Shown here in pieces: positions 7,107-33,128 of a DNA stretch of 64,000 nucleotides; within the stretch, counting starts at the first letter, position 1; each line of letters begins with the position of its first letter. A program made the position numbers and the translations under genes. The notes beneath the pieces were generated by a model that did no database searches, was not told the origin of the DNA, and saw nothing but the letters and a program-made list of their open reading frames with translations. The stretch lies in IMG/VR virus record IMGVR_UViG_3300027759_000056, positions 32,001 to 96,000 of that record; one strand, written 5' to 3'. Source of the DNA: a virus.

Positions 7107-7501
7107 TACGGGAAAAAATAATATGAAACCCTTTGTTCTTTATCAAAAACAACAACACCCAAACCATTTTCCAATACTTTGATAACAATTTCCATGTTTC
7201 TTTTAAGAAATGTGTTATAAACTTTCAAATACGCAGCGTCATCAACTTTTGAGTAGGATAAAATATCATAATTAATATCACCATTAGAAATCATACCAGT
7301 GTTTTCGTCAGTAACATTAAAAACCCAAAGAGTTTTATATGTTGTCATATCTTGATTTGGAACAAAATCCCATTTCTGAGTCTGATAATTGTATATCATC
7401 TTAGATGTGGATAACGTATTAGTCATAACTTTTGTAGTTGTGTACTGACCAAATAATGATGTTGAAAACAACAATAACAGAGACAAGAATATATTTTTCA
7501 T
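7106..7501 (-). CDS. secreted hypothetical protein
   Basis: Signal peptide MKNIFLSLLLLFSTSLFGQ. Confidence 0.6.
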   Translation of the reverse strand: MKNIFLSLLLLFSTSLFGQYTTTKVMTNTLSTSKMIYNYQTQKWDFVPNQDMTTYKTLWVFNVTDENTGMISNGDINYDILSYSKVDDAAYLKVYNTFLKRNMEIVIKVLENGLGVVVFDKEQRVSYYFFP

Positions 7502-18715: not shown

Positions 18716-19972
18716 ATGAGAAAAGTTTCTAAACAAAACATTAAAGAAGCTGTTGGTGTTCCAGCAAACATTGAAGTTGCATCACAGAATTTATATAATG
18801 ACATTGCAAAAAAATTAAAGAATAAAGAAATTGGTCCTGAGGATGTTGTTAAATTCAAATTTATTAACAAAGATGGTAGATATTCATTTGGAGATTTTAA
18901 TCCAAATTTTATAACCGCTGAGTTCGGTTTAGGTACTTATTCTGGTGATGCCATAGATAATAGTACCGGAAATAAAATAACGGGTGGGTTGGTTCACAGT
19001 ATGGGATTTTCAAAACAATCAAAATTAAATGATGTATTTGATTTGGTTAGTGTGGATGATGATGGTGGTATTGAATTAAATATTGATTATGCTCAACCTA
19101 ATGATGATGAAGAGTGGTCAGGGAATAAAATTTTGGACACAATGGAAAAAAACAAGTCCAATAGTATATCATCATTGGGGCATGAATTAAAACATGCTTA
19201 CGACAACTACAAAAAGCCGGTAGAAAAATTGGTTGATAGAAGCAATTATGCTGGATTTCAAAGGTCAAGGTCAGGAGTACGACCAATGGACCAATTTATG
19301 TTCAATATGTATTTTATAAATCAAATTGAAAATTTGGTTAGACCAACTGAATCATATGTTGAAATGGTTTCTGATGGTGTTGTAACAAAAGAACAATTCT
19401 TAAAGTTTTTGTTAAATTCAAAAACATATAAAACTTTGGTGCAAATACGTGACAGTTCATTTGATAATTTGGTTGAAGACTTAAAAGGTTACGAAACTGA
19501 AATTGATGATTACTTAAATAACACAGTTGATGATTATGATTCATCTTCATTAGACATTGATGATAAGGTAAAATACTTTCTAAAAGTATTTGCATTCGTA
19601 ACAGCACAAAAGGTTCACGAAGTAAGAAAACAAATGGTTTCTCCAAATATTTTTCAAATGTTATTTAGTAGTAGTTTATTTGGTGGTAATGATGAGGCTG
19701 ATAAATTTTTAGAAAGTACTTTAGGTGATTTAACCAAAATGATGGACAATCCAAATAAGTTTTACTACACTTCAATTGAAAACATGAAAAAAATTGCAAT
19801 TAAAATGATGAAAAAATTGTCAAAACTATACTCTTTAATTAACAAAGACAAAACAATCACTGTTGAAACAAGAGACCCTATGAGTTTTGAGATGGACCAA
19901 TTGATGAGAAAAACTCAAAAACCAAGAAAGATTGATACCAAGTTGGATGAAAGATTTACCAAAAAAAAATAA
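18716..19972 (+). CDS. probable virion protein with HExxH zincin motif
   Basis: LGHELKHAYD; N-terminal IKEAVGVP; TATTTAT upstream. Confidence 0.55.
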   Translation: MRKVSKQNIKEAVGVPANIEVASQNLYNDIAKKLKNKEIGPEDVVKFKFINKDGRYSFGDFNPNFITAEFGLGTYSGDAIDNSTGNKITGGLVHSMGFSKQSKLNDVFDLVSVDDDGGIELNIDYAQPNDDEEWSGNKILDTMEKNKSNSISSLGHELKHAYDNYKKPVEKLVDRSNYAGFQRSRSGVRPMDQFMFNMYFINQIENLVRPTESYVEMVSDGVVTKEQFLKFLLNSKTYKTLVQIRDSSFDNLVEDLKGYETEIDDYLNNTVDDYDSSSLDIDDKVKYFLKVFAFVTAQKVHEVRKQMVSPNIFQMLFSSSLFGGNDEADKFLESTLGDLTKMMDNPNKFYYTSIENMKKIAIKMMKKLSKLYSLINKDKTITVETRDPMSFEMDQLMRKTQKPRKIDTKLDERFTKKK

Positions 19973-19973
19973 T

Positions 19974-20210
19974 ATGATTACAATGGAAGACTTAAAAGAT
20001 TTTGACTTCACAAATGATAGTAAGGTTGAATTTATGACCAAACCAGGTTTTGTAGAAAAACGTATTCAACAAATGATTCAAATTGGTGCGAATGAAGAGT
20101 ATGAAAAATACAGTGAAGGAATGAGTGATGATGACATTGCAAAATGGAAAGAAGGGTTTGTAGTCGGAGCAAACTGGTTATTAAAAAATAAAAACGAAAA
20201 AAATATTTGA
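19974..20210 (+). CDS. small hypothetical protein
   Basis: ORF following 18716..19972. Confidence 0.45.
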   Translation: MITMEDLKDFDFTNDSKVEFMTKPGFVEKRIQQMIQIGANEEYEKYSEGMSDDDIAKWKEGFVVGANWLLKNKNEKNI

Positions 20211-20250
20211 CATATCAATAAACTTTTGTATCTTTGTACCATATTTAATA
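20206..20250 (+). promoter_or_regulatory. Bacteroidota-type promoter (TTTG...TATCTTTG) plus ATATTTAATA late-like motif, driving leader 1 and tRNA array 1
   Basis: TTTG 20206-20209, TATCTTTG 20229-20236, ATATTTAATA 20241-20250. Confidence 0.7.
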
Positions 20251-20259
20251 CTAAACACA

Positions 20260-20355
20260 ATGAAACTCGTAAATAAACAAATCGTGAAACATGTCATTCA
20301 ATTCTGTTCGAATTGGTATCTTCGCGTATTCGTAAGTTCGGGTGTTTTAAGTTAA
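20260..20355 (+). CDS. leader peptide 1, MKLVNKQIVKHVIQFCSNWYLRVFVSSGVLS (attenuator of tRNA array 1)
   Basis: 31-codon ORF between promoter and terminator; contains all 13 amino acids of the downstream tRNAs; AGTTCGGGT (20335-20343) is complementary to the terminator 5' arm. Confidence 0.8.
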   Translation: MKLVNKQIVKHVIQFCSNWYLRVFVSSGVLS

Positions 20356-20376
20356 CACATAGTAGCCTTAAAAAGG

Positions 20377-20407
20377 AAACCCGAACTCACAAGGTTCGGG
20401 TTTTTTT
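20377..20407 (+). terminator. attenuator terminator upstream of tRNA array 1
   Basis: AAACCCGAAC-TCACAAG-GTTCGGGTTTTTTT. Confidence 0.88.
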
Positions 20408-20415
20408 GTTTTTAA

Positions 20416-20426
20416 GTTCTTTGACA
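20416..20426 (+). promoter_or_regulatory. boxA-like antitermination element
   Basis: GTTCTTTGACA; near-identical copies precede array 2 and the tmRNA. Confidence 0.6.
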
Positions 20427-20443
20427 TGTTGGTAATCAAAAAT

Positions 20444-20516
20444 GGGACGGTAGCAAAGATGGTCAATGCGCTGGACTGAAAATCCAGTCATGGTGGTTCG
20501 AGTCCACCCCGTCCCA
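20444..20516 (+). tRNA. tRNA-Phe(GAA)
   Basis: CTGGA-CTGAAAA-TCCAG arm, cloverleaf. Confidence 0.9.
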
Positions 20517-20524
20517 CAATACAT

Positions 20525-20601
20525 TGGTGATTAGCTCAGTTGGTTAGAGCACTACGCTGATACCGTAGGGGTCACAGGTTCAAATCCTGTATCACCAACC
20601 A
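20525..20601 (+). tRNA. tRNA-Ile(GAT)
   Basis: CTACG-CTGATAC-CGTAG arm, encoded CCA. Confidence 0.92.
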
Positions 20602-20606
20602 TAAAT

Positions 20607-20677
20607 TACCCTTTCGTCTAACGGCAGGACGAGTGGTTTTGGTCCACTTAGTGGAGGTTCGAATCCTTCAGGGGTAA
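20607..20677 (+). tRNA. tRNA-Gln(TTG)
   Basis: AGTGG-TTTTGGT-CCACT arm, U1-A72. Confidence 0.9.
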
Positions 20678-20683
20678 CAATAT

Positions 20684-20757
20684 GACTTCGTAGCTCAATT
20701 GGCTAGAGCACCGTGCTTTTAACACGGGGGTTTCGGGTTCAAGTCCCGATGGGGTCA
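20684..20757 (+). tRNA. tRNA-Lys(TTT)
   Basis: CCGTG-CTTTTAA-CACGG arm. Confidence 0.92.
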
Positions 20758-20763
20758 CAATAT

Positions 20764-20836
20764 CTTTCCTTAGCTCAGTTGGAAGAGCACTTGGCTTACA
20801 TCCAAGATGTCGTTGGTTCAAATCCAACAGGAAAGA
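20764..20836 (+). tRNA. tRNA-Val(TAC)
   Basis: CTTGG-CTTACAT-CCAAG arm. Confidence 0.9.
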
Positions 20837-20843
20837 CAAAAAT

Positions 20844-20925
20844 GCCAGTATCGCATAGCGGCAATTGCGGCGGATTGTAAACCCGCTCTCATTTGAGTTC
20901 GTAGGTTCGAGTCCTACTGCTGGCA
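20844..20925 (+). tRNA. tRNA-Tyr(GTA)
   Basis: GCGGA-TTGTAAA-CCCGC arm, long variable arm. Confidence 0.9.
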
Positions 20926-20987
20926 CAAAACTTATAATCCTCCAAAACTCACTTTTTTTACTAGTTTTGGAGAGTTATAGAATATAA

Positions 20988-21061
20988 GTCCATATGCCTG
21001 AGAGGTTCAAAGGGACAGTCTGCAAAACTGTTATTCGTTGGTTCGATTCCAACTATGGACT
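20988..21061 (+). tRNA. tRNA-Cys(GCA)
   Basis: ACAGT-CTGCAAA-ACTGT arm, U73. Confidence 0.9.
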
Positions 21062-21063
21062 CT

Positions 21064-21138
21064 GTGACTGTAGTTCAGTGGTAGAGCATCGGCTTGTGGT
21101 GCCGAGTGTCGTGGGTTCGAATCCCATCAGTCACCCCA
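21064..21138 (+). tRNA. tRNA-His(GTG)
   Basis: TCGGC-TTGTGGT-GCCGA arm, C73, encoded CCA. Confidence 0.92.
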
Positions 21139-21143
21139 AATAC

Positions 21144-21226
21144 GGAAGTGGTCCGAATGGACGAGGACACCGCCTTGAAAGCGGCTGGCTGTAAAAGGCT
21201 TGGGGGTTCGATTCCCTTCTCTTCCG
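21144..21226 (+). tRNA. tRNA-Ser(TGA)
   Basis: CCGC-CTTGAAA-GCGG arm, long variable arm, G73. Confidence 0.88.
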
Positions 21227-21234
21227 CAAAAAAT

Positions 21235-21309
21235 GGTTCCTTAGTTTAATTGGATAAAACATCTCGCTACGGACGAGAAGATGTGGGGGTTCGAATCCCT
21301 CAGGAATCA
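21235..21309 (+). tRNA. tRNA-Arg(ACG)
   Basis: TCTCG-CTACGGA-CGAGA arm. Confidence 0.9.
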
Positions 21310-21316
21310 CAACTAC

Positions 21317-21387
21317 GTAAGTGTGGTGTAATGGTAGCATAAAGGTCTCCAAAACTTTTGGCGAGGGTTCGAGTCCTTCCACTTGCG
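21317..21387 (+). tRNA. tRNA-Trp(CCA)
   Basis: AAGGT-CTCCAAA-ACTTT arm, G73. Confidence 0.9.
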
Positions 21388-21393
21388 CAAAAT

Positions 21394-21475
21394 ACCAAAG
21401 TGGCGTAACGGTAGCCGCATTAGTCTTAGAAACTAATGTCCTAAGGGCGTGTGGGTTCGACTCCCACCTTTGGTA
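21394..21475 (+). tRNA. tRNA-Leu(TAG)
   Basis: TTAGT-CTTAGAA-ACTAA arm, long variable arm. Confidence 0.92.
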
Positions 21476-21486
21476 CAAAAATAAAT

Positions 21487-21568
21487 TGGCAGGTAGCCTA
21501 GAGGTCAGGCAGCAGACTGTTAATCTGCGACGGAAACGTCTACGTGGGTTCGATTCCCACCCTGTCAG
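21487..21568 (+). tRNA. tRNA-Asn(GTT) with atypical long variable arm
   Basis: GCAGA-CTGTTAA-TCTGC arm; GACG-GAAA-CGTC variable hairpin. Confidence 0.85.
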
Positions 21569-21613
21569 CAAAATATTTTTTGTAAAGTCAAATATCTGTT
21601 GTATATTTGTTGT

Positions 21614-22090
21614 ATGGAAAAGGGGTTTATATCATCTTCAAAAGCAATCAAAGGATATACTGAATCAAAAATTGCCAAATCTGAAAACAACGATTGTGTT
21701 GTTAGAGCAATTGCATCAGCTGCGGATATGGATTATGATTCCGCCCACCAATTCGTTAAAGAAACATTCAATAGAAAAAATGGTAAAGGTACTTTTGGAC
21801 TTGGTACTGGTATGAATTTGTTGTCAAAGAATGGTAAACAAATTAACGGTAAAAACATTCAAATTATTTCTGAAGAACACAACACCATGTTGTATTATGT
21901 GGTAGTTAAAGGTGTAAAAAAATTAAGAGCAACAACAACCGCATCATTCATCAAAAAACACCCTGTTGGTTCTTATGTGGTTGTTGTTAAAGGTCATGCG
22001 TTTACCATCAAAGATGGTGTTGTTATTGGTAACCCTGATGATGGTAAAAAAATGAAAAAACACATTACAGGGGCTTGGAAAATTGGATAA
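21614..22090 (+). CDS. conserved phage hypothetical protein (DCVVRA motif)
   Basis: NNDCVVRAIASA...GHAFTIKDG; TATATTTG promoter at 21602. Confidence 0.65.
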   Translation: MEKGFISSSKAIKGYTESKIAKSENNDCVVRAIASAADMDYDSAHQFVKETFNRKNGKGTFGLGTGMNLLSKNGKQINGKNIQIISEEHNTMLYYVVVKGVKKLRATTTASFIKKHPVGSYVVVVKGHAFTIKDGVVIGNPDDGKKMKKHITGAWKIG

Positions 22091-22117
22091 TATGTTTTAA
22101 CTTTGTATAACAATAAT

Positions 22118-22191
22118 GGTGTGGTAGCTCAGCAGGTAGAGCAGTAGATTGAAACCCTACGTGCCACGTGGTTCGATTCCCGTTCACACCA
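22118..22191 (+). tRNA. tRNA-Phe(GAA), second copy with irregular T-stem
   Basis: GGTGTGG/TCACACC acceptor, GTAG-ATTGAAACC-CTAC arm; own TAACTTTG promoter. Confidence 0.7.
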
Positions 22192-22195
22192 CAAA

Positions 22196-22330
22196 ATAAT
22201 TAGATGGGCGTAATGAGGGATGGTACCCGAGTCCCCAAGATTGGAGGTCACCAGTAATAGGTGGCCGTTGCGTCGTAAGGTTGTCTAATCCGTCCTGAAC
22301 GGTATTCGGTTCGAGTCCGACTCTAATTAT
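22196..22330 (+). ncRNA. tRNA-like structured RNA A (acceptor-like stem plus T-arm, expanded core)
   Basis: ATAATTAGA/TCTAATTAT closing stem; TCGG-TTCGAGT-CCGA T-arm; internal GGTCACC/GGTGGCC hairpin. Confidence 0.6.
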
Positions 22331-22336
22331 GAAAAA

Positions 22337-22402
22337 CTAACCCAGTTTCACAATGAGGGCTGATACCTTCGGAGTGGGGGTGACGGTCAGGAAAGACTGA
22401 CA
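22337..22402 (+). ncRNA. small structured RNA resembling C4/CI antisense RNA
   Basis: CAGTTTC-ACAAT-GAGGGCTG and CTTCGG hairpins; 3' TGACG-GTCAG-GAAAGA-CTGAC. Confidence 0.4.
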
Positions 22403-22407
22403 ACCAT

Positions 22408-22565
22408 AGTCAGGTGGCGGAATTGGTAGACGATAATGGAGTTATACTATCAAACACAGAGGGTGCGGCGTAGATGGGAACTACTACATTATCTCTTGGA
22501 CGCAAGAGAGCAATATAACCCTAACCATTTGGTATAACGTGTAGGTTCGAATCCTACCCTGACTA
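22408..22565 (+). ncRNA. tRNA-like RNA C with about 100 nt replacing the anticodon arm
   Basis: AGTCAGG/CCTGACT-A acceptor, Leu-type D arm TGGCGGAATTGGTAGACG, GTAGG-TTCGAAT-CCTAC T-arm. Confidence 0.7.
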
Positions 22566-22566
22566 C

Positions 22567-22660
22567 AAAAACATAAACTCAAGTACCCACACAGTGGTGA
22601 GACGGGCTAAGTAAGATACAATTCCTCGGAACTGGGAGTAGAGAGCTTGAGAGTGTTTTT
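22567..22660 (+). ncRNA. small structured RNA D
   Basis: AAAACAT..CTCAAG / CTTGAG..GTGTTTT closing helix around a GC-richer core. Confidence 0.4.
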
Positions 22661-22671
22661 TAATTAAAAAT

Positions 22672-23355
22672 ATGAAAAATTTAGTAAAAGCAATTATTTT
22701 GGTCATTGTTATAGGAATTTTAGGTTTCATAACAAGTTGGAAAGTTTGGGGTAACAATAAACCAATTGAAGATACCGTTAAAATTGATACGGTAAAAATT
22801 AAACCACAAGACACAATTGTGGATGTTAAAGGAAAATACGTTCTTTTTATTGGTGATTCACATACATCAAATCCTAATGGATGGCAAACAATCTTATCCA
22901 ACAAAACAAAGATGAGAATGAATAACATTTCTGTTGGTGGAAAAACTACAGGTTGGATGTTAGAAAGGGCAAAAGAATCAATTCACGAGAATTTAGATTA
23001 TTGTTTTATCTATGGTGGTGCCAATGATATGTTTAACAGTAAAATTACTATTGAAAGTGCCATAAAGAACATTCAAAGAATTGTTAATATTTGTAATTCC
23101 AAAGGTGTTAAACCAGTTGTGATTACGGGATTTGACCCCCTTACTTGTATTAACACACCAGAAAATCCAAACTATAAATTTAAGTATTCCAAATTTCAGA
23201 ATGAATTGATTAAAAAAATTGTTGGTGGAAAGGTGATTAATACTCGTGTGATTACAAAATCGGATTGTTGGGATGGACTTTGTCATATGGCACCATCAGG
23301 ACATAAAAAAATTGGAAATTGTGTTATCAAAGAAATGAAGTTTAAGACATATTAA
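22672..23355 (+). CDS. membrane-anchored SGNH/GDSL hydrolase
   Basis: FIGDSHT, GGAND, DGLCH motifs; N-terminal TM helix. Confidence 0.85.
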   Translation: MKNLVKAIILVIVIGILGFITSWKVWGNNKPIEDTVKIDTVKIKPQDTIVDVKGKYVLFIGDSHTSNPNGWQTILSNKTKMRMNNISVGGKTTGWMLERAKESIHENLDYCFIYGGANDMFNSKITIESAIKNIQRIVNICNSKGVKPVVITGFDPLTCINTPENPNYKFKYSKFQNELIKKIVGGKVINTRVITKSDCWDGLCHMAPSGHKKIGNCVIKEMKFKTY

Positions 23356-23376
23356 CACATCAGTATATTTATTGAT

Positions 23377-23814
23377 ATGGAAATTACAAAAAGAGACCTT
23401 TTAAATGGTTTATCATCAAAATCAAATCCAGCAACTGAAACTGCAGATGTGGTTGATATGATTGCAACATTACTTCATTCAAGAAATCAGGCTCATGTTT
23501 TTCATTGGCAAACAAAATCACAATCATCATTTGCTGAACATATGGCCTTAGGTACGTATTACGATGAGATTGTTGAATTAATTGATAATATTGTTGAAAG
23601 TTATCAAGGAAAATACGAAATAATTACTGGTTATAAAACAATTAAAACAGTTGATTATAAATCAACAGAACAAGTAATATCTTATTTTAAAGAATTAGAT
23701 GAAAATATTGAAAAAAATAGAACATCGGTTAAAGAATCCTATATTCAAAATCAAATTGATGGAGTTCAAGAATTGATTTACTCAACATTATACAAATTAA
23801 GATTCTTAAAATAA
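23377..23814 (+). CDS. ferritin/Dps-like phage protein (DUF5856-like)
   Basis: HVFHWQT..FAEHMALGTYYD..D.IVESYQGKY..STLYKLRFL. Confidence 0.75.
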   Translation: MEITKRDLLNGLSSKSNPATETADVVDMIATLLHSRNQAHVFHWQTKSQSSFAEHMALGTYYDEIVELIDNIVESYQGKYEIITGYKTIKTVDYKSTEQVISYFKELDENIEKNRTSVKESYIQNQIDGVQELIYSTLYKLRFLK

Positions 23815-23849
23815 TTGACGAATCACGGTTTTAAACATATATTTGCCTC

Positions 23850-24461
23850 ATGGCTAAATACACACTTAATACCTATGGATGGTCTTTTGAGGCTATCTGC
23901 AAATCTCTAACTGACGAACAAGTCCAAATTATTAAAGACAAAATGGAAGAAGAAGGTTTTTCGGAACTCCATGAAATCCGTTTTGATTTGGATGAACTAT
24001 TGGACCTTGATTTTTGGGACGGTGAAATATTTCACAAAACCGAAGCGTTTGACAATGGTACAATGCACTTTGAACTTCTTGATGAAGAAGAAAATAAAGT
24101 ATTAGAGTTTGGTATTGGTGAAACCGCCGACTTATACGAAACAATTGAAGATTTTGAAGAAAAGTATGAGTATAGAGGTTATAGTCCGATTCCTGAAGAA
24201 AAAGGACCAACCAATTTGTATTTAAGCATAGATGAAAACAAAGGTGGGATTTTTACATTCAAACTTGAATCTGATACCATACCGACACCATCGGATTTTA
24301 CTTACTCAACAGGTTCAATAGACACAACTGATGGTGATTATGATTTTATTGACAAAATTTTCTTTAAAGGACAACCATTAGAAATTGAAGATTGTTTGGA
24401 TAATTCAGGGAAATCATCCTCATGTATGATTTATACATTGGATGGTGAAACCATAGAATAA
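23850..24461 (+). CDS. acidic hypothetical protein
   Basis: Intact ORF; TATATTTG promoter at 23838. Confidence 0.6.
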   Translation: MAKYTLNTYGWSFEAICKSLTDEQVQIIKDKMEEEGFSELHEIRFDLDELLDLDFWDGEIFHKTEAFDNGTMHFELLDEEENKVLEFGIGETADLYETIEDFEEKYEYRGYSPIPEEKGPTNLYLSIDENKGGIFTFKLESDTIPTPSDFTYSTGSIDTTDGDYDFIDKIFFKGQPLEIEDCLDNSGKSSSCMIYTLDGETIE

Positions 24462-24465
24462 TTAT

Positions 24466-24539
24466 GGCGAGGTAGCTCAGTCGGTTAGAGCGCAGGATTC
24501 ATAACCCTGAGGTGGGGGGTTCAATTCCCTCCCTCGCTA
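24466..24539 (+). tRNA. tRNA-Met(CAT), elongator type
   Basis: GGCGAGG/CCTCGCT acceptor, CAGG-ATTCATAAC-CCTG arm. Confidence 0.88.
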
Positions 24540-24568
24540 CAAATACATAATTGTGAGTATTTATATAT

Positions 24569-26122
24569 ATGATTTTATTTGAAGGTCGTAAGGAAGACTC
24601 ATTTAAGAAATTCCAAAAAAGTATTGATGGTGAAAGAAAGATGATATCCACTTACATGGATGATGCGTCTGCGTATGATTTTTTAATTGGTGAACCTTTT
24701 ATAAAAGAGACTAATTACAAATATCTTAATGATATTTTGGATTATTATTATACCGTAAATTATTATTCAGGTGAAGCTGAGCCTTTAGACAAAGACAAAG
24801 CAAGAAATCTAATATTTGGAATGAGGAGTGAAATTGACAAGATTGTTGCTTCTTTAGAAACATTTGAAAAACACAAATCCAAATTCAAATATCCTGAGTT
24901 TAGAAAATACAATACAAATATAGAAGATTTTTTTAAGGAAGCTCAAAAGATTAAAACTGACGTTGAGACCAAACAGATTGAAAAATCCGCCAAGAAAGAA
25001 ATAGATAAAATTTTTGAAAACGATACGTTGTTGGTTATAAAACCAAAATCATTTACAGCATCTTGTTATTATGGTTCAGGTACAAAATGGTGTACAACAA
25101 TGAAAGGTAATCCATCGTACTTTAATCAATATAGCTCAAGTGGAAACTTGTATTATTTAATATTAAAAAATGTTGATAGAAGTAACAAGTTTTACAAAAT
25201 GGCTATTCACGCACCAAAGAATAAAAGATTTGATGAAGCTTCAATTTGGTACGATTCAACTGACGAAAGATTAACATCAAGAGAAAAAGAATCTGTATTA
25301 GCTCATATGCCAAAAGACGCTTATAATGCAATGGTTAATGACTATAAAACTTCATTCCCTGAAGAGAATCCAATAGATATTATTTACAAGATAATGCCAA
25401 ATGTGAACCAAAATGTGGATGATTATGTATATAAATTCAAAGGTGGTGAAATAGAATTGGCAATTGATTCACCTGAGATTGAAGATACTGACACAAATAG
25501 TCTTAGAATTAGTTCTACTTGGGGTATATCGGAACAAAGAAATGGTAAAGAGGTTTATCATGAAGATGGTGCCATTGATTGTTATTTGGAATCTTATCCA
25601 AATCAAGTGTTATTACCAAACTATTACATAGTTAAAATAAGTTATGAGATAATACCATATTCAGATACTAAAATTGTTGAAAGATATGATGGTACTACAA
25701 CATTACAACTTGACAACGAAAGAAAAAACGACCCAGAATATGTTAGAATACAACTTAACGGTGCATTAAAACAAATATTTGACGGTTTCCAAAATAAAAT
25801 GGAGTATAGACTTAGAAATGATGAGGATTTATTAGAGAAATATCCACCAACAAAGTCTAAAGCTTATACCATGTCAAAATACACCTTCACAGGTAAAGGA
25901 GCGTTAACCAAAGCATTTATGGAATATCTTAAAAACATTCCTGAAGGTAAGGTCGGTAATAAGAACGAATTTTTAACTCAAATAGGTAGAAGAAGTGGTC
26001 CTGGTCAATATAGTAGTTTCTTTTCAGCGTCAAATATGGCAGGTATTAGTGCCAGACAAGGAAAAAGTGGTTTGGTTAAAGGACCAAACTTTGACAAATT
26101 TTACAAGAAAATATTTGAATAA
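24569..26122 (+). CDS. probable head-packaged protein with 'YGSGTKWCT' domain
   Basis: MILFEGRKED N-terminus; ASCYYGSGTKWCTT motif; TATTTAT upstream. Confidence 0.6.
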   Translation: MILFEGRKEDSFKKFQKSIDGERKMISTYMDDASAYDFLIGEPFIKETNYKYLNDILDYYYTVNYYSGEAEPLDKDKARNLIFGMRSEIDKIVASLETFEKHKSKFKYPEFRKYNTNIEDFFKEAQKIKTDVETKQIEKSAKKEIDKIFENDTLLVIKPKSFTASCYYGSGTKWCTTMKGNPSYFNQYSSSGNLYYLILKNVDRSNKFYKMAIHAPKNKRFDEASIWYDSTDERLTSREKESVLAHMPKDAYNAMVNDYKTSFPEENPIDIIYKIMPNVNQNVDDYVYKFKGGEIELAIDSPEIEDTDTNSLRISSTWGISEQRNGKEVYHEDGAIDCYLESYPNQVLLPNYYIVKISYEIIPYSDTKIVERYDGTTTLQLDNERKNDPEYVRIQLNGALKQIFDGFQNKMEYRLRNDEDLLEKYPPTKSKAYTMSKYTFTGKGALTKAFMEYLKNIPEGKVGNKNEFLTQIGRRSGPGQYSSFFSASNMAGISARQGKSGLVKGPNFDKFYKKIFE

Positions 26123-26150
26123 TTCTTATTAGTGTCTTATACTTTTGATA

Positions 26151-27419
26151 ATGGAAAAATTATCAAATGTAGGGAACAATATTGTGGGCTCTGAAATTAT
26201 TAAAATCTCACAACAAATCAAAGAAATTGCTAAAACAAAATCAGTATCTAACCTAACCATAGGTGACTTTAATTCCAAACTATGGCCAATACCCTCAAAA
26301 TTAAGAGAACACATTCAAGATGCGTATGAGTGGGATTTAACCAACTATCCAAACTCACAAGGAGAACTTGAATTAAGAGAATCCGTATCCAAACACATTA
26401 AACATCAGTTCAATGTTGATTATTCACCTGAAGAAATATTAATTGGTGGTGGAGTTCGTCCATTAATTTATACGGTTTATAAAGCCACGGTAAATCCAAA
26501 TGAAGAGGTGATTTATCCTGTACCATCTTGGAATAATAACCACTATTGTTTTTTACATAACGCAAAAAAAGAAGAAATTGAATGTACACCTGAAAATTCA
26601 TTTTTCCCAACCGTTGAAGATGTTGACGGCAGAATAAGTGATAAAACATCATTGGTTTGTATTTGTTCACCGCAAAATCCAACAGGTCGTGTAATTGACC
26701 CCGAAGTTCTGAAAGGTATTTGTGAGTTGATTGTGAGAGAAAATAAAATCAGGTCAACACAAGTAGGTTCAAGACCATTGTATTTGTTCTTTGACCAGAT
26801 TTATTCTGACATCACCAAAGAAGGTTTGTTTATCCACCCATTAACTTTATGTCCTGAAATCAGAGATTATTTGATTTGTGCTGATGGTATTTCAAAGTCA
26901 TTAAACGCAACTGGTGTTCGTGTTGGTTGGTTGTTTGGTCCAAAAGATATTATTGGAAAGATGACCGAAGTTTTGTCTCACATTGGAGCATGGGCTCCAA
27001 AACCTGAACAACGAGCATTGGATGCGTACATCAGAGAAGATTATGAAGATTACATTTCTCACATTAACTATGTAACAAAATCGTACGAATTTATATCAGA
27101 TAAAATATGTGGTAAGTTGGAAGAATTGAAAAACAAAGGTCATAATGTTGATTACCAAAAACCTGATGGTGGAATTTATATTTCGGTTTATTTGGGTTAT
27201 GTTCATTCATTTCCAACAACTGAAGAGTATATTTCGTTCTTAATTAATACCTGTGGGTTGGGAATTGTTCCGTTTGAATATTTTGGTTCAAAGAGTAACA
27301 AAGGATGGTTTAGAATATCAATTGGTAATGTTGCCGAGTTAAATTTGGACTCAATTATTAAAACAATTGAAAATTCTGTACAAAAATCAGTAAGTTATGT
27401 AAATTCTTTAGCATTTTAA
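26151..27419 (+). CDS. PLP-dependent class I/II aminotransferase (aspartate aminotransferase-like)
   Basis: CSPQNPTG, FDQIY, DGISKSLNATGVRVGW (PLP Lys), GWFRIS. Confidence 0.9.
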   Translation: MEKLSNVGNNIVGSEIIKISQQIKEIAKTKSVSNLTIGDFNSKLWPIPSKLREHIQDAYEWDLTNYPNSQGELELRESVSKHIKHQFNVDYSPEEILIGGGVRPLIYTVYKATVNPNEEVIYPVPSWNNNHYCFLHNAKKEEIECTPENSFFPTVEDVDGRISDKTSLVCICSPQNPTGRVIDPEVLKGICELIVRENKIRSTQVGSRPLYLFFDQIYSDITKEGLFIHPLTLCPEIRDYLICADGISKSLNATGVRVGWLFGPKDIIGKMTEVLSHIGAWAPKPEQRALDAYIREDYEDYISHINYVTKSYEFISDKICGKLEELKNKGHNVDYQKPDGGIYISVYLGYVHSFPTTEEYISFLINTCGLGIVPFEYFGSKSNKGWFRISIGNVAELNLDSIIKTIENSVQKSVSYVNSLAF

Positions 27420-27476
27420 TTGACACTTTTCAAAAGTTTGATATATTTAATAAGAAATTAAATAATAATACATTCA

Positions 27477-27545
27477 ATGATTACCATCAACATATTCGGC
27501 ACACCAGCAACAGAGGCTGATACTTCCAAAGTGGAGATGGGATAA
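27477..27545 (+). CDS. leader peptide 2, MITINIFGTPATEADTSKVEMG (attenuator of tRNA array 2)
   Basis: 22-codon ORF after ATATTTAATA; GAGATGGG (27534-27541) is complementary to terminator 5' arm CCCATCTC; amino acids match the downstream tRNAs. Confidence 0.75.
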   Translation: MITINIFGTPATEADTSKVEMG

Positions 27546-27566
27546 TATTGTAAAAAAATATCTTAC

Positions 27567-27598
27567 AAAAACCCATCTCAAAAGGATGGGTTTTTTTT
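27567..27598 (+). terminator. attenuator terminator upstream of tRNA array 2
   Basis: AAAAACCCATC-TCAAAAG-GATGGGTTTTTTTT. Confidence 0.88.
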
Positions 27599-27605
27599 GT
27601 GTTTG

Positions 27606-27677
27606 TTTGGCAGTATCAAAAAAATGTATTAACTTTGTAGTGTTGAAAAACACAACAGAACAAAAAAGTTCTTTGAC
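27606..27677 (+). promoter_or_regulatory. Bacteroidota-type promoter plus boxA-like element
   Basis: TTTG 27606, TAACTTTG 27630-27637, GTTCTTTGAC 27668-27677. Confidence 0.65.
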
Positions 27678-27696
27678 GTATTGGTAAGAAAAAATT

Positions 27697-27768
27697 GCTC
27701 GGTTCATCTATCGGTTAGGATGCTAGGTTTTCATCCTAGAAAGAGGGGTTCGACTCCCCTACCGAGTA
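27697..27768 (+). tRNA. tRNA-Glu(TTC)
   Basis: CTAGG-TTTTCAT-CCTAG arm. Confidence 0.9.
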
Positions 27769-27777
27769 CAAATAAAT

Positions 27778-27852
27778 AGCGGGGTGGAGCAGAGGTAGCT
27801 TGCGAGGCTCATAACCTTGAGGTCACAGGTTCGAATCCTGTCCCCGCTACCA
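27778..27852 (+). tRNA. tRNA-Met(CAT), initiator-like body with A1-U72
   Basis: AGCGGGG/CCCCGCT-A-CCA; CGAGG-CTCATAA-CCTTG. Confidence 0.9.
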
Positions 27853-27860
27853 AAATAAAT

Positions 27861-27934
27861 CGCGAGTTGGTGTAATGGTAACATAATGGGCTCATAACCC
27901 ATAGTTCCGAGTTCGAGTCTCGGGTTCGCAACCA
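27861..27934 (+). tRNA. tRNA-fMet(CAT)
   Basis: C1:A72 mismatch, GGG/CCC anticodon stem, encoded CCA. Confidence 0.9.
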
Positions 27935-27935
27935 A

Positions 27936-28150
27936 TGGATGTAACTTGGGTCGTGCCACATTGGCCACTTTTACATCAAGAGTCAGAAGGATTAGAGGTG
28001 GCCGTGACTACTCTGACTCGAATACAAAGTACCACGATGCTTACCGTAAGAACAGCACAGTGGTAGATAGAGTTAACGTGAATAACCCAAGGCATAAGCG
28101 TTAACAACCCCCAATAAGACTATTTGGCCAATAGAAACTGTTGGGGTTAT
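27936..28150 (+). ncRNA. structured RNA: five consecutive large-loop hairpins
   Basis: GATGTAA/TTACATC, GAGTCAGA/TCTGACTC, TACCAC/GTGGTA, GTTAACG/CGTTAAC, CCCCAA/TTGGGG stems. Confidence 0.55.
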
Positions 28151-28155
28151 TAAAA

Positions 28156-28227
28156 GCGAGTGTAGTATAAAGGCTATTACTCCAGCCTTCCAAGCTGGAT
28201 ATGCGAGTTCGATTCTCGCCACTCGCT
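28156..28227 (+). tRNA. tRNA-Gly(TCC)
   Basis: CCAGC-CTTCCAA-GCTGG arm, U73. Confidence 0.92.
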
Positions 28228-28230
28228 CAA

Positions 28231-28430
28231 AAAGAACCTTTTCTTACGGAAGTCCGATTAGCGCGGATGAAAGGAACCTTGACTTCACGGGAGTAGCTAC
28301 CCAATTGAAGCTTGAATGACTCAAGGTACTCTGTAATGGACCCTGCTCTATGGTGCACACATAACAGGTGATGGGGAACAAACCATCGGTAAAATCTAAA
28401 CCCACGGTGAGCGTGGAAGGAAAGTTTCTT
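28231..28430 (+). ncRNA. about 200-nt multi-branched structured RNA of unknown class
   Basis: AAGAACCTTTTCTT/AAGGAAAGTTTCTT closing helix; internal TCCG/CGGA, CCTTGA/TCAAGG, CCTG/CAGG, GATGG/CCATC, CCACG/CGTGG helices. Confidence 0.6.
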
Positions 28431-28436
28431 TTTTTT

Positions 28437-28511
28437 GCGGGAGTAGCTCAGGGGTAGAGCTTCAGTTTACCAAACTGAAAGTCGAAGGTTCGAATCCTTT
28501 TTCCCGCTCCA
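28437..28511 (+). tRNA. tRNA-Gly(ACC), rare A34 anticodon
   Basis: GCGGGAG/TTCCCGC-T-CCA Gly-type acceptor; TCAGT-TTACCAA-ACTGA. Confidence 0.85.
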
Positions 28512-28579
28512 AATGTAAATCTTAAAAAGGGCCCTTCCGTGTTTATCACGGCTTGTTGGGCCCGGGTTTACTAACTTAC

Positions 28580-28651
28580 GGTCCTGTAGTTAATCGGCTA
28601 TAATATTGCCCTGTCACGGCAAAGTGCCGGGTTCGATTCCCGGTGGGACCG
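28580..28651 (+). tRNA. tRNA-Asp(GTC)
   Basis: TTGCC-CTGTCAC-GGCAA arm, G73. Confidence 0.9.
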
Positions 28652-28662
28652 CAAAAATAAAA

Positions 28663-28732
28663 GGGCCTGATGTCAACGGCAGACCGTTTGATTTGCAATC
28701 AGAACGTATGGGTTCGATTCCCACAGTGTCCA
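28663..28732 (+). tRNA. tRNA-Ala(TGC), atypical (bulged acceptor, short D arm)
   Basis: TTTGA-TTTGCAA-TCAGA arm; G3:U70 pair and A73. Confidence 0.75.
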
Positions 28733-28741
28733 CAAACAAAT

Positions 28742-28817
28742 AGCGTAGTAGAGGAGTCAGGTTTATCTCATCTGCTTTGGGAGCAGAGGCACGCTGGTTC
28801 GAATCCAGTCTACGCTA
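28742..28817 (+). tRNA. tRNA-Pro(TGG)
   Basis: TCTGC-TTTGGGA-GCAGA arm. Confidence 0.9.
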
Positions 28818-28850
28818 CTAATTATAAAAAAAATTTACTATCTTTGTAAC

Positions 28851-29138
28851 ATGAAAAACATATTAAAAGACCCCCGATTTTATTTTTTCCTATGGATTGT
28901 TCTATCTATTATTCTTGCCATTACGTTAGGAGCTTGTAAACAGAAACCTTTGATTGAAAAAGGTGATGTAGTTGAAAAGTTCGTTATTGATTCAATGGTT
29001 CAATTGCCACCTCACAGCACAATTGAACTTGACAGGAAGTACAAGTATTTCATGTCAGACAGCAGTGAGTTTACTTCTTTGAAGAAATATAACATTGGTG
29101 ATACAATCACTTATGTTTACAAAAAACAAGGAAAGTAA
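28851..29138 (+). CDS. small lipoprotein
   Basis: Hydrophobic signal with LGAC lipobox; TATCTTTG at 28839. Confidence 0.6.
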   Translation: MKNILKDPRFYFFLWIVLSIILAITLGACKQKPLIEKGDVVEKFVIDSMVQLPPHSTIELDRKYKYFMSDSSEFTSLKKYNIGDTITYVYKKQGK

Positions 29139-29157
29139 TATATATTAAAACATAAAT

Positions 29158-29234
29158 GCCTGAATAGCTTTAATTGGTAGAGCACCTGACTTGTAATCAG
29201 GGGGTTGGCGGTTCGAGTCCGTCTTCAGGCTCCA
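29158..29234 (+). tRNA. tRNA-Thr(TGT)
   Basis: CCTGA-CTTGTAA-TCAGG arm, encoded CCA. Confidence 0.92.
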
Positions 29235-29246
29235 AACACAATAATC

Positions 29247-29432
29247 ATGGACCCCAAGACTCAAATGACGCAGGAAGATTTTTTAACTGAATTGACTGAA
29301 TTAAGTCAGTCATTTGGATTGTATGGTGAAAATGACAACTTTGGTGTTGATGGAGTTTACATACATACCCAACCAGAAATGTACATATGTCCGTGGGATA
29401 ATACTCAAGGGGATTGTACTCATTTCAACTAA
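29247..29432 (+). CDS. small hypothetical protein
   Basis: ORF between tRNAs; ATG 29247. Confidence 0.45.
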   Translation: MDPKTQMTQEDFLTELTELSQSFGLYGENDNFGVDGVYIHTQPEMYICPWDNTQGDCTHFN

Positions 29433-29437
29433 TATTT

Positions 29438-29511
29438 GGACGGGTAGCTCAACAGGTTAGAGCAGGATGCTTATATCATCAAGGTTGGGGGTTCAAGTCC
29501 CTTCTCGTCTA
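29438..29511 (+). tRNA. tRNA-Ile(TAT), rare in bacteria
   Basis: GATG-CTTATAT-CATC arm, GGACGGG/CTCGTCT acceptor, A73. Confidence 0.82.
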
Positions 29512-29525
29512 CTAAAAATTTAATT

Positions 29526-30098
29526 ATGAGCAACGAATATAATCAATGGTATTGGAAACTTTATAGATGGTTCAGATGGGACGCTAAACATCTTCATCGT
29601 GATATTGCACAGGGTTTTAGAAACCTATGGAAATGGTTACCAATAATTTGGAAAGACCGTGATTGGGATGACCATTTTATTTTTGAAGTTTTGAAATTCA
29701 AAATCAAGAATACCGCCAAGTATACAGAAAAAAAACAAAGGTTTGTTGGTTGGGAAAAAGAAGTTAGATATATGAGAATATGTGAAACTTTAATTGATAG
29801 AATTCAAAATGAGTATTATCAGATGGAGTATCAAGATTATCATGATTTTGATATTAGTACGGTACCAACAGAAGATGGTTTGTATGAAGTTGTCTTTGAT
29901 GTTAAACGTGATGATACTGATGAATTTGTTAAAAAATACCCACACGCTCTAAGAAAAGCAAAAAAAGACCCAAGATTTAAGAGTTATTTTAAGAATGAAA
30001 GAAATGGTTATCTTGCTGTGGGTATGATTAGACACGAAAAAGCAAGAAAACTGTTATTCAAAATTTTGGAACAAAGAATTGAGCGTTGGTGGGATTGA
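29526..30098 (+). CDS. conserved phage hypothetical protein (Trp-rich)
   Basis: WLPIIWKDRDWD...IERWWD. Confidence 0.65.
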   Translation: MSNEYNQWYWKLYRWFRWDAKHLHRDIAQGFRNLWKWLPIIWKDRDWDDHFIFEVLKFKIKNTAKYTEKKQRFVGWEKEVRYMRICETLIDRIQNEYYQMEYQDYHDFDISTVPTEDGLYEVVFDVKRDDTDEFVKKYPHALRKAKKDPRFKSYFKNERNGYLAVGMIRHEKARKLLFKILEQRIERWWD

Positions 30099-30126
30099 TT
30101 TTTTTCACTATATTTGTATAACAAAT

Positions 30127-30200
30127 GGACCTTTAGCTCAGTTGGTCAGAGCGGCTGACTCATAATCAGTAGGTCGTAGGTTCAAGCCCTACAGGGTCCA
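30127..30200 (+). tRNA. tRNA-Ile2(CAT, lysidine type), possibly Met
   Basis: GGACCTTTAGCTCAG 5' end typical of Ile2; GCTGA-CTCATAA-TCAGT. Confidence 0.85.
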
Positions 30201-30203
30201 CAA

Positions 30204-30389
30204 ATGAAACAAAAAATGTATAGACCAAAAATTGACCGAGTTATTGGTGGAGTATGTTCTGGTATTGCATACCACGTAGACATTGACCCAATTTTTGTTC
30301 GAGTATTATTCTCAATATTAATTTTTAGTCCACTCCCAATTATCTTTGCTTATTTATTATTTTGGTTTTTTACACCAGGTGGTGAATAA
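30204..30389 (+). CDS. pspC: PspC-domain membrane protein
   Basis: YRPKIDRVIGGVCSGIAYHVDIDPIFVRV...AYLLFW. Confidence 0.85.
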   Translation: MKQKMYRPKIDRVIGGVCSGIAYHVDIDPIFVRVLFSILIFSPLPIIFAYLLFWFFTPGGE

Positions 30390-30456
30390 AAAGTTTTAAT
30401 ACCTGATTTATATCAGTTTTTTTTGTATTTATTTAGTAAATAACACTTTTTTACTA

Positions 30457-31083
30457 ATGGAATGGGCTGATATTCTTAAAACATTAATAACCGCTGTATC
30501 ATCAATTGTTGTTGCATTGGTTGCTGCAGGGTATTTTAGAAAAAATTCTGAAAAAAACAAAGAAGAAAAAAGCCGTGGTAAATTAATGGAACAAATTCAA
30601 CGTGATGAATTGGTTCATTTTACATTAAGAGAAATTAGAAGAAAATTTAATTCAGATAGAGTTTATATTATTCAATTTCATAATGGTGGAAGTTTTTATA
30701 CTCAAACACCAATGCAAAAAGCATCCATTACATATGAAAGATGTTCAGATGGATTAGAAAAATTTTCAGAAAGATTTCAAAATATTTTAATTTCAAATCA
30801 TAATTGGTATTTTACCGAAATTATTAACAATCGTTGTTTTTTTTCAGACATTGAAACACAGGTCAAAGATTTACCTGAAAAAAGTTTATTAAAAAATTAT
30901 GGTAATTACGCACATGCTGGAGTACCAATTTATGATGTTGAAAAAAGATTAATTGGTGTTATGTGTTTATCTTGGGTATTTTCTGATTTACAAATAAATG
31001 ATATACATGATGGTAAATTCAATGATGAGTTCAAAAAACAACTTTATGATGATGCCAATTCTTTAAGACCATATCTTGTATGA
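30457..31083 (+). CDS. holin-like protein (N-terminal TM plus GAF-like domain, T4 holin T architecture)
   Basis: Single TM followed by DRVYIIQFHNGG...GVPIYD..LIGVMCL GAF pattern. Confidence 0.55.
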   Translation: MEWADILKTLITAVSSIVVALVAAGYFRKNSEKNKEEKSRGKLMEQIQRDELVHFTLREIRRKFNSDRVYIIQFHNGGSFYTQTPMQKASITYERCSDGLEKFSERFQNILISNHNWYFTEIINNRCFFSDIETQVKDLPEKSLLKNYGNYAHAGVPIYDVEKRLIGVMCLSWVFSDLQINDIHDGKFNDEFKKQLYDDANSLRPYLV

Positions 31084-32684: not shown

Positions 32685-32747
32685 AAAAATTTTATAAAAA
32701 AATATTAAATTAAAGTGGTCTAAATTGACCACTTTAATTGTTTTTAG

Positions 32748-33128
32748 TGGAGATGGAGGGTATCGAACCCTCGTCCAGACTACCTCAACCGATAGATACT
32801 ACACGTTTAGGTCAGTGTTTGCCAACACTCCGAAATTCACAATTCCCTTATTTTATAGTGGTTCGGTTTACTGAGAACTAATCCTCCACTTGTTTCTTTT
32901 TAGATAGAAACCACACCTCTAAAGACTTCTGTTCTTAGGTTAATGTCTCCCGACCTGTTTTGTAATAGCGATTAGGCTACTACAGAAGCGTTTTCACGGA
33001 TTAATCCGATAGTCGCCATTTTGTCTAAAACGTTGCCGTCTAATTTTTCGAACCAGTTTTTAATGAGTTATTTCAGCTCATACGTGCATCCATCAATCAA
33101 CAATACCTGTCGATTCCATGTCATCCCC
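32748..33128 (-). ncRNA. ssrA: tmRNA; tag ORF GNVLDKMATIGLIRENASVVA* at 33037-32972
   Basis: 5' GGGGATGACATGGAATCGAC; 3' GAGGGTTCGATACCCTCCATCTCCA; G3:U70 Ala acceptor; internal tag frame ending VVA-stop. Confidence 0.92.

Follow-up and report, generated by a model that had tools for sequence, protein, structure and literature searches.

Why phages carry tRNA genes is a question that is 50 years old. Codon compensation and the replacement of tRNAs destroyed by host defences are the current proposals (PMC10264068, PMC11464382). A stretch of viral DNA of 64,000 nucleotides (nt), taken from the 112-kb IMG/VR record IMGVR_UViG_3300027759_000056 and referred to below as the window, raises the accompanying question of how such genes might be switched on. 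Its second tRNA array (array 2, positions 27697-28818, plus strand) is preceded by a short open reading frame (ORF), named leader 2, and by an intrinsic terminator, an arrangement that a preliminary description of the sequence had proposed to be a leader-peptide attenuator. The window holds 29 to 30 tRNA genes, one tmRNA, and one freshwater-1 RNA (ARAGORN, Rfam), and its promoters are of a type that we take to be that of the Bacteroidota (TTTG / TAnnTTTG). The metatranscriptome and metagenome runs that contain parts of the window originate from lakes and other fresh water.

This study describes the anatomy and conservation of leader 2, and the agreement between its codons and the tRNA genes that follow. 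Leader 2 is interpreted as a ribosome-mediated (leader-peptide) transcription attenuator that would gate entry into the tRNA array and thereby exert negative feedback on the tRNA species of that array, a reading to which we assign a probability of about 0.78 on the basis of comparative sequence analysis. The phage would then probably make more array 2 tRNAs when ribosomes decode the matching codons slowly. Control in the style of the trp operon is known for amino-acid operons; its apparent use on phage tRNA genes is well supported by comparative evidence, and full-text searches of the literature did not turn up any tRNA gene described as being under leader-peptide attenuation.

Materials and Methods

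The aminotransferase gene upstream of leader 2 was used to retrieve 41 viral loci, and a scan with the pattern of the boxA-like element that precedes array 2 yielded another three homologues, more distant and set in other contexts (L108:6680-6754, minus strand; L113:5210-5278; and L071:2776-2850). The leader 2 alignment consisted of eight sequences; i.e., the window and seven relatives. A wider family of modules was collected by a rule that was blind to leader composition: an intrinsic terminator had to lie at most 260 nt from a tRNA gene, the leader was the longest ORF with an ATG start that ended at most 70 nt before this terminator, and the array comprised the following tRNA genes with gaps of at most 1 kb. 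This yielded 54 modules, 44 of them non-redundant (<50% identity), in phages of Bacteroidota-type hosts. Anatomy, conservation, covariation, and the leader-to-array match at the level of amino acids, codons, reading frame, and position were computed. The promoter P2 described below was read in the sequence by comparison with the established Bacteroidota promoter consensus.

Anatomy of leader 2

The leader ORF extends from 27477 to 27545 and consists of 22 codons followed by TAA, as had been stated in the preliminary description. The terminator was also found where it had been placed (27567-27598, composed of 27567-27595 and a T-run to 27598), with a 12-bp stem (27569-27593), a run of eight T residues, a 5' arm designated region 3, and a 3' arm designated region 4; like all features of the module, ORF and terminator are on the plus strand. 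Region 2, the antiterminator strand GAGATGGG (27534-27541), is formed by the last codons of the ORF, and its complementarity to CCCATCTC (27572-27579) in the 5' arm of the terminator can be read directly in the sequence. Full-length leader 2 RNA folds into the terminator, and the minimum-energy fold obtained when the 3' terminator arm is omitted is exactly the pairing of regions 2 and 3. In the latter fold, the small A/U helix TTGTAA/TTACAA that had been noted earlier (27548-27568, arms 27548-53 and 27563-68), a weak one, forms nested within the antiterminator loop.

Region 2 ends 2 nt 5' of the TAA (27543), and the distance from stop codon to terminator stem is 24 nt in leader 2 and 18-41 nt in most modules of the wider family. 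From the known sizes of the ribosome footprint, a terminating ribosome would mask region 2, not region 3. Codons 8-16 (27498-27524), here called the sensor window, encode GTPATEADT; i.e., Gly, Thr, Pro, Ala, Thr, Glu, Ala, Asp, and Thr, or six amino acids, and every residue is an amino acid of a downstream tRNA. Three codons (10 nt) separate the sensor window from region 2. A matched ORF, an intervening intrinsic terminator, an exclusive antiterminator, and an appropriate placement of the regulatory codons are all found together in leader 2.

A putative promoter, P1, lies upstream of the ORF at 27420-27449 and reads TTGACA, 16 nt, TATATT(TA), with 11 of 12 matches; alternatively, it can be read as TTG-N19-TAnnTTTA, which differs by one base from the Bacteroidota -33/-7 type. 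In all eight leader-2-type sequences a promoter-like TTGACW-N16/17-TATATTTA stands 20-30 nt 5' of the ATG. The motif ATATTTAATA had been put forward as a signal shared by leader 2 and the leader of the other array (leader 1). As such it is not significant alone, with three matches in the window versus 1.0 expected and at least three in 7 of 100 shuffles; in the relatives, however, it corresponds to the conserved -7-like box of the pre-leader promoter. As the module has its own conserved promoter, the terminator is not merely the end of the aminotransferase mRNA.

Conservation of leader 2 in related phages

Loci with the same array downstream keep leader 2, at aminotransferase identities that decrease from 98% (L003, L004, L023, and L029) to 82% (L005), 75% (L038), and 67% (L017). 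The ORF is open in all eight aligned sequences, with 22-24 codons and indels in threes; likewise, the stop codon occupies the same alignment column in 8/8, directly 3' of the antiterminator strand, and all eight have the terminator. In the antiterminator 91.9% of the alignment cells pair, with two compensatory pairs, compared to 34-57% in slid controls, and in the terminator 97.2% pair, with three compensatory pairs. For example, both partners of the antiterminator are changed in L017, which has GGGTGGG/CCCACCC in place of GAGATGGG/CCCATCTC. The ORF and the pairing of regions 2 and 3, on the conservation of which the preliminary description had made its proposal depend, are thus both kept in the seven relatives, with compensatory changes. 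The nested TTGTAA/TTACAA helix is retained in L109 and L005, and other small hairpins are present in L038 and L017. Codons 8-22 of the leader are 96-98% identical to those of L005 and L038, versus 77-83% for the flanking aminotransferase gene. A convincing conserved 1:2 helix (pause or anti-antiterminator helix) was looked for in leader 2 and its relatives and was not found; the full-length fold pairs CCAUC (27484-88) with GAUGG, and this pairing is changed in the relatives.

The leader content follows the array content in most leader-2 relatives. The L017 leader (7323-7394) lacks a Pro codon, and no Pro tRNA is present in its 11.5-kb locus. TTA/TTG and AGR codons have been gained in the leaders of L113 and L071, whose arrays begin with Leu(UAA); the array of L113 further includes Arg(UCU), and the L071 locus ends before its array is readable. 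In L108, Arg is encountered in the leader window as well as in the array. The phage of the window carries its Leu and Arg tRNAs elsewhere in the genome, and its leader 2 has neither Leu nor Arg.

Match between leaders and their tRNA arrays

In array 2, the tRNAs start at 27697 (Glu), 27778 (CAU), 27861 (CAU), 28156 (Gly(UCC)), 28437 (Gly(ACC)), 28580 (Asp), and 28742 (Pro), and further tRNA genes, with small ORFs between them, follow at 29158-30201, namely Thr(UGU) (29158-29234), Ile(UAU) (29438-29512), and another CAU tRNA (30127-30201). The tRNAs listed in the preliminary description are therefore present with the partial exception of Ala(UGC) (28663-28732), which is a borderline case: Rfam detects it at 29.5 bits (threshold, 29), and ARAGORN does not. 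On manual reading, the CAU tRNA at 27861 resembles an initiator in its three G-C pairs and its C1xA72 mismatch, and those at 27778 and 30127 may each be Met or Ile2. Thr tRNA is located directly inside the array in L005 and L017.

As counted earlier, 17 of the 22 residues of the leader fall among the eight array amino acids, and with Met1 excluded 16 of 21 residues are in the array set, compared to an expected fraction of 0.45 (binomial P = 0.004). Also in agreement with the preliminary description, every one of the 20 amino acids occurs in one or the other of the two leaders. We give less weight to its matching of an ATA codon to AUA-reading tRNAs: the Ile residues lie at codons 2-6 and hence outside the sensor window of the family, which makes them weaker evidence than the core of codons 8-16. 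Leader 1 (20260-20355, plus strand) provides a stricter case, as its codons 10-22 contain the 13 amino acids of its array once each and no others.

Among the 44 non-redundant modules, the excess of in-array residues in the leader was 0.152, versus 0.003 +/- 0.015 for permuted pairings (z 9.9; reached in 0 of 20,000), and the fraction of array amino acids covered by the module's own leader was 0.92 versus 0.745 (z 7.6). Trp is found in 21/21 leaders that are followed by a Trp tRNA and in 8/23 of the others. The match extends to codons: within multi-codon families, 318 of 458 leader codons are readable by anticodons of the array, where 240 are expected (P = 8e-14). Similarly, the ATA share of Ile codons is 17/25 for arrays with Ile(UAU) versus 10/48 for those with Ile(GAU) only, and the corresponding AGR share of Arg codons is 15/19 versus 8/25. 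The match is specific for the reading frame (excess +0.30 in frame; -0.05 and -0.09 in the other two), and it peaks at codons 8-19, is at background in the first seven and last six codons, and ends about seven codons before the stop. The match is confined to this stretch, which begins at codon 8; a ribosome stalled within it would not cover the antiterminator strand, as attenuation requires. A duplex with the 5' arm of the terminator reaches z < -2 in 36 of the 54 modules, and its upstream strand is usually situated in the last ~10 codons.

Individual modules illustrate this agreement. In L074 (3513-3614), codons for Leu, Ser, His, and Tyr make up the window in front of the array Tyr-Ser-Tyr-His-His-Ser-Leu-Leu-Leu, and other striking modules feature Ser, Arg, and Trp (L115:4242-4328, minus strand) or Gln, Pro, Arg, and His (L154:753-821, minus strand). 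Each of the blocks into which the tRNA arrays are divided has a matched leader of its own.

Proposed mechanism and alternative explanations

The interpretation of leader 2 as an attenuator, for which the preliminary description had argued, is supported by its conservation, by the compensatory changes, and by the tracking of array content in the relatives and in the 44 modules. Indirect indications that the leader is translated are its conserved frame, the frame-specific composition, and, weakly, contigs from RNA libraries that cover it and cross the terminator. From these data we infer how the leader would be translated, how stalling would lead to read-through, and what the physiological signal would be, as follows. 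A transcript from P1 would start near 27455, and leader 2 would be translated close behind the polymerase. If codons 8-16 are decoded fast, the ribosome would reach the TAA at 27543 and cover region 2, upon which the terminator hairpin (27569-93) would form and the transcript would end at the T-run. If a matching charged tRNA is scarce, the ribosome would stall in codons 8-16 and leave region 2 free to pair with 27572-79 in the terminator 5' arm, so that the polymerase would continue through the boxA-like element into the tRNA genes. As more tRNA would relieve the stall, the circuit would constitute negative feedback on the pool of array-encoded tRNA species.

Several observations weigh against this interpretation. 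Covariation is limited in an alignment of eight sequences, and the observed score was reached by 14 of 500 shuffles. The match of leader 2 taken alone is modest (the P value of 0.004 given above); the contiguous Glu-to-Pro block alone matches just 9 of the 21 residues, the remainder of the match leaning on the Thr and Ile tRNAs located 0.3-0.7 kb past this block and on the borderline Ala tRNA, and N, F, S, K, and V are five residues outside the array set. The P values of the family are not those of independent samples, because the modules are related by descent. In view of the lack of a convincing conserved 1:2 helix, an untranslated leader would leave region 2 free and lead to read-through. 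Finally, a second promoter, P2, is conserved in close relatives, so that the attenuator is not the sole control here and its weight could be small.

The alternative that survives best accepts a real leader-peptide attenuator and differs in the signal, which would be amino-acid starvation or the overall speed of translation (host shut-off, temperature), with the array on under translational stress. The architecture is identical to that of the preferred explanation, a stall looks the same whether tRNA or its charging is lacking, and in the closest system published, the Anabaena PCC 7120 trn operon, the response is to general translational stress (PMC8421152, PMC10272220). However, the match in the family reaches codon boxes and anticodons, a detail for which a general stress sensor has no need, and such a sensor does not need arrays divided into blocks with a matched leader each. 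Extra tRNA would, moreover, be expected to give no relief from amino-acid starvation, and we consider this alternative unlikely.

P2 gives rise to a second alternative, in which P1, leader, and terminator form a self-contained small gene, for a stable small RNA or a micropeptide, and the array is driven by P2 alone; the likeness to an attenuator would then be without regulatory effect here. The promoter that the preliminary description had placed 3' of the terminator is present in canonical form at 27606-27637 (TTTG at 27606-09, N20, and TAACTTTG at 27630-37), and its caveat in this respect holds, since P2 is conserved between terminator and array in close relatives (window, L109, L005, L017, and L038, in the last four of which the -7 box is kept), and the terminator is strong, with its 12-bp stem and eight T residues. 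Because P2 lies between terminator and array, attenuation could act only on transcripts from P1 or from further upstream, which the preliminary description had conjectured to be perhaps late ones; P2 would provide attenuator-independent transcription, to which the attenuator would add a demand-driven component. The antiterminator is nonetheless maintained in exactly those relatives that bear P2, with the compensatory change in L017, and the L113 and L108 homologues are without a promoter-like box between terminator and boxA. In addition, a small RNA or peptide has no reason to track the downstream tRNA set. In the wider family, boxA lies at most 45 nt 3' of the terminator in 19 of 40 modules, and 18 of these 19 have no promoter-like box between the two, so that the terminator is the only gate there; in leader 1 the terminator abuts boxA, with no promoter between. 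The spacer is longer in the other 21 of the 40 modules, to which leader 2 of the window belongs, and 9 of these 21 have a TAnnTTTG box. Contigs from RNA libraries (four runs, two studies, exact match) cover leader 2 and cross the terminator, including one that spans 27473-27623 (X2) and one that spans 27518-27769 and enters tRNA-Glu (X1); as their ends and strand are not shown and carry-over of DNA is possible, these two contigs are weakly compatible with read-through from P1 and speak to the same weak degree against a self-contained gene. Taken together, we regard a small gene with an array driven by P2 alone as improbable.

That the hairpin is a constitutive aminotransferase terminator, with the ORF and its composition a product of chance, is very improbable: the terminator does lie 150 nt after the aminotransferase stop, the composition of leader 2 has a P of only 0.004, and ATATTTAATA is not significant by itself, but ORF, stop column, and antiterminator are conserved in eight sequences, codons 8-22 are conserved far above the upstream gene, the L108, L113, and L071 modules were found via the boxA pattern and not via the aminotransferase gene, and the family statistics oppose chance.

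Relation to known systems and implications

The leaders of the thr (Thr and Ile), ilvGMEDA (Ile/Leu/Val), trp, his, leu, and phe operons, of which the multivalent thr and ilv leaders are functionally the nearest, resemble leader 2 in having a short ORF with regulatory codons and a terminator just downstream, as well as an exclusive antiterminator whose upstream strand at the ORF end is masked by the terminating ribosome, with stalling resulting in read-through, which is predicted here for leader 2. Unlike these, leader 2 would control tRNAs instead of biosynthetic enzymes, is phage-borne, is followed by an rrn-type boxA, and displays no convincing conserved 1:2 helix. Moreover, its sensor is composed of many codons that occur once or twice each (six amino acids; 13 in leader 1), whereas the amino-acid leaders contain runs of one. 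Searches against Rfam gave a weak, sub-threshold match to Thr_leader (RF00506; 26.1 bits versus a gathering score of 55), of which leader 2 is not a member, and a match to Phe_leader on the wrong strand (30.3 bits versus 55); no curated leader family was matched at gathering level.

T-boxes likewise couple read-through to a specific tRNA state by competition between terminator and antiterminator in a leader RNA. They differ in that they bind uncharged tRNA directly, require no translation, read a single specifier codon, and have synthetase or amino-acid genes as their targets. The T-box family (RF00230) gave no match at its gathering threshold, and none in 27400-28900 when hits up to E = 1 were admitted. 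The Anabaena trn operon is a long accessory tRNA array that is kept low and is induced when translation is impaired, and its control has been ascribed to the TrcR repressor, whose binding sites are direct repeats that span the start site and the -10 box (PMC8421152, PMC10272220). This operon differs from leader 2 in its promoter repressor, in being cellular rather than phage-borne, and in lacking a codon-matched ORF; the terms 'attenuat', 'leader', and 'terminator' are absent from the text of the 2021 paper (PMC8421152).

If the interpretation as an attenuator is correct, the phage genome would keep its own record of what is treated as limiting, in the form of a leader that enumerates the codons read by the tRNAs encoded downstream. 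Leader-peptide attenuation would also be extended from amino-acid operons to stable-RNA genes, with sensors of up to 13 different codons. With their small size (~150 nt), their large number, and their self-contained nature, the modules might find use as tRNA-specific reporters. Candidate triggers are scarcity of codons in the host, host shut-off, and tRNA-cleaving defences such as those described before (PMC10264068, PMC11464382). A tentative extension, which we hold to be rather doubtful as it stands, is that in phages of Bacteroidota-type hosts the tRNA blocks, each gated by a leader that acts as a codon roster and would signal for each tRNA species in turn whether the decodable pool of the cell is intact, could function as a homeostat of the tRNA pool and at the same time as a counter-defence sensor, in which destruction of host tRNAs (anticodon nucleases, shut-off) would turn on the matching block alone, which would subsequently turn itself off.

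boxA-like elements

The boxA-like element that had been reported 5' of array 2 is present at 27668-27687, 9 nt 5' of tRNA-Glu. The same 20-nt pattern stands 5' of the leader 1 array and 23-34 nt 5' of ~45 phage tRNA arrays. It is also carried by the rrn spacers of Chitinophagaceae and related Bacteroidota, and therefore points to this host group. For example, in Sediminibacterium (L207) it is located in the 16S-23S spacer, between the spacer tRNAs and the 23S rRNA, 62 nt before the latter. The element accordingly combines a sequence match to rrn operons of the host group with a position at the head of a stable-RNA operon, and resembles the NusB/NusE-dependent rrn boxA in that a 20-nt element precedes long structured-RNA transcription units. 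Position and sequence suggest a role in antitermination before array 2 as well. It cannot suppress the attenuator terminator, because it lies downstream of it.

As for cellular tRNA operons, one of the 124 motif occurrences listed in 120 bacterial and archaeal loci precedes tRNAs, and this exception (L171) is a 5.9-kb, phage-like contig; among the matches listed there is no evidence for such control in cells. A 5-bp hairpin with a GAAA loop was read in the sequence between P2 and boxA (27640-27653), in a boxB-like position; the relatives keep a hairpin there with a different sequence, and the layout resembles boxB-boxA. Loci with boxA and an odd ARAGORN call ~840 nt downstream were considered as host rRNA operons and rejected as such; they are phage loci with a DUF2693-FD RNA. 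In these viral loci the DUF2693-FD RNA (Rfam, 76 bits; L049:2697-2745, L065:757-805, and L091:868-916) lies directly 5' of the boxA-like motif, with a tRNA ~840 nt further downstream, and the boxA element is therefore evidently used beyond tRNA arrays.

Further features of array 2 and the phage

A megablast search with 19000-31000 against deposited phages returned as sole match a 54-nt tRNA stretch in two huge-phage records. Besides its tRNAs, the phage encodes a tmRNA at 32745-33128 (minus strand; Rfam, 112 bits), which together with the ~30 tRNAs suggests a translation-rescue toolkit.

The tRNA-Gly at 28437-28511 has the anticodon ACC, and GCC is present at the same place in L005, L017, and L038. 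A34 is unusual for Gly, and the GGC codon of the leader would need a tRNA with ACC or GCC. Array 2 includes two spacers of ~200 nt. The freshwater-1 RNA (28332-28394, plus strand; Rfam, 73.8 bits versus a threshold of 72) is situated in the spacer 28229-28436, between the two tRNA-Gly genes and inside the array transcript, and is covered by RNA-library contigs; this spacer looks like an insertion, because the Gly tRNAs of L003 are just ~77 nt apart. The spacer between the initiator-like tRNA and tRNA-Gly(UCC) (27935-28155, plus strand; 220 nt) has no Rfam match up to E = 1, is covered by RNA-library contigs, and seems to be missing from L003. A natural variant without the first CAU tRNA (27770-27852) is seen in one RNA-library contig (X2 record 13), where 27769 is followed by 27853, and the content of the array therefore varies between strains.

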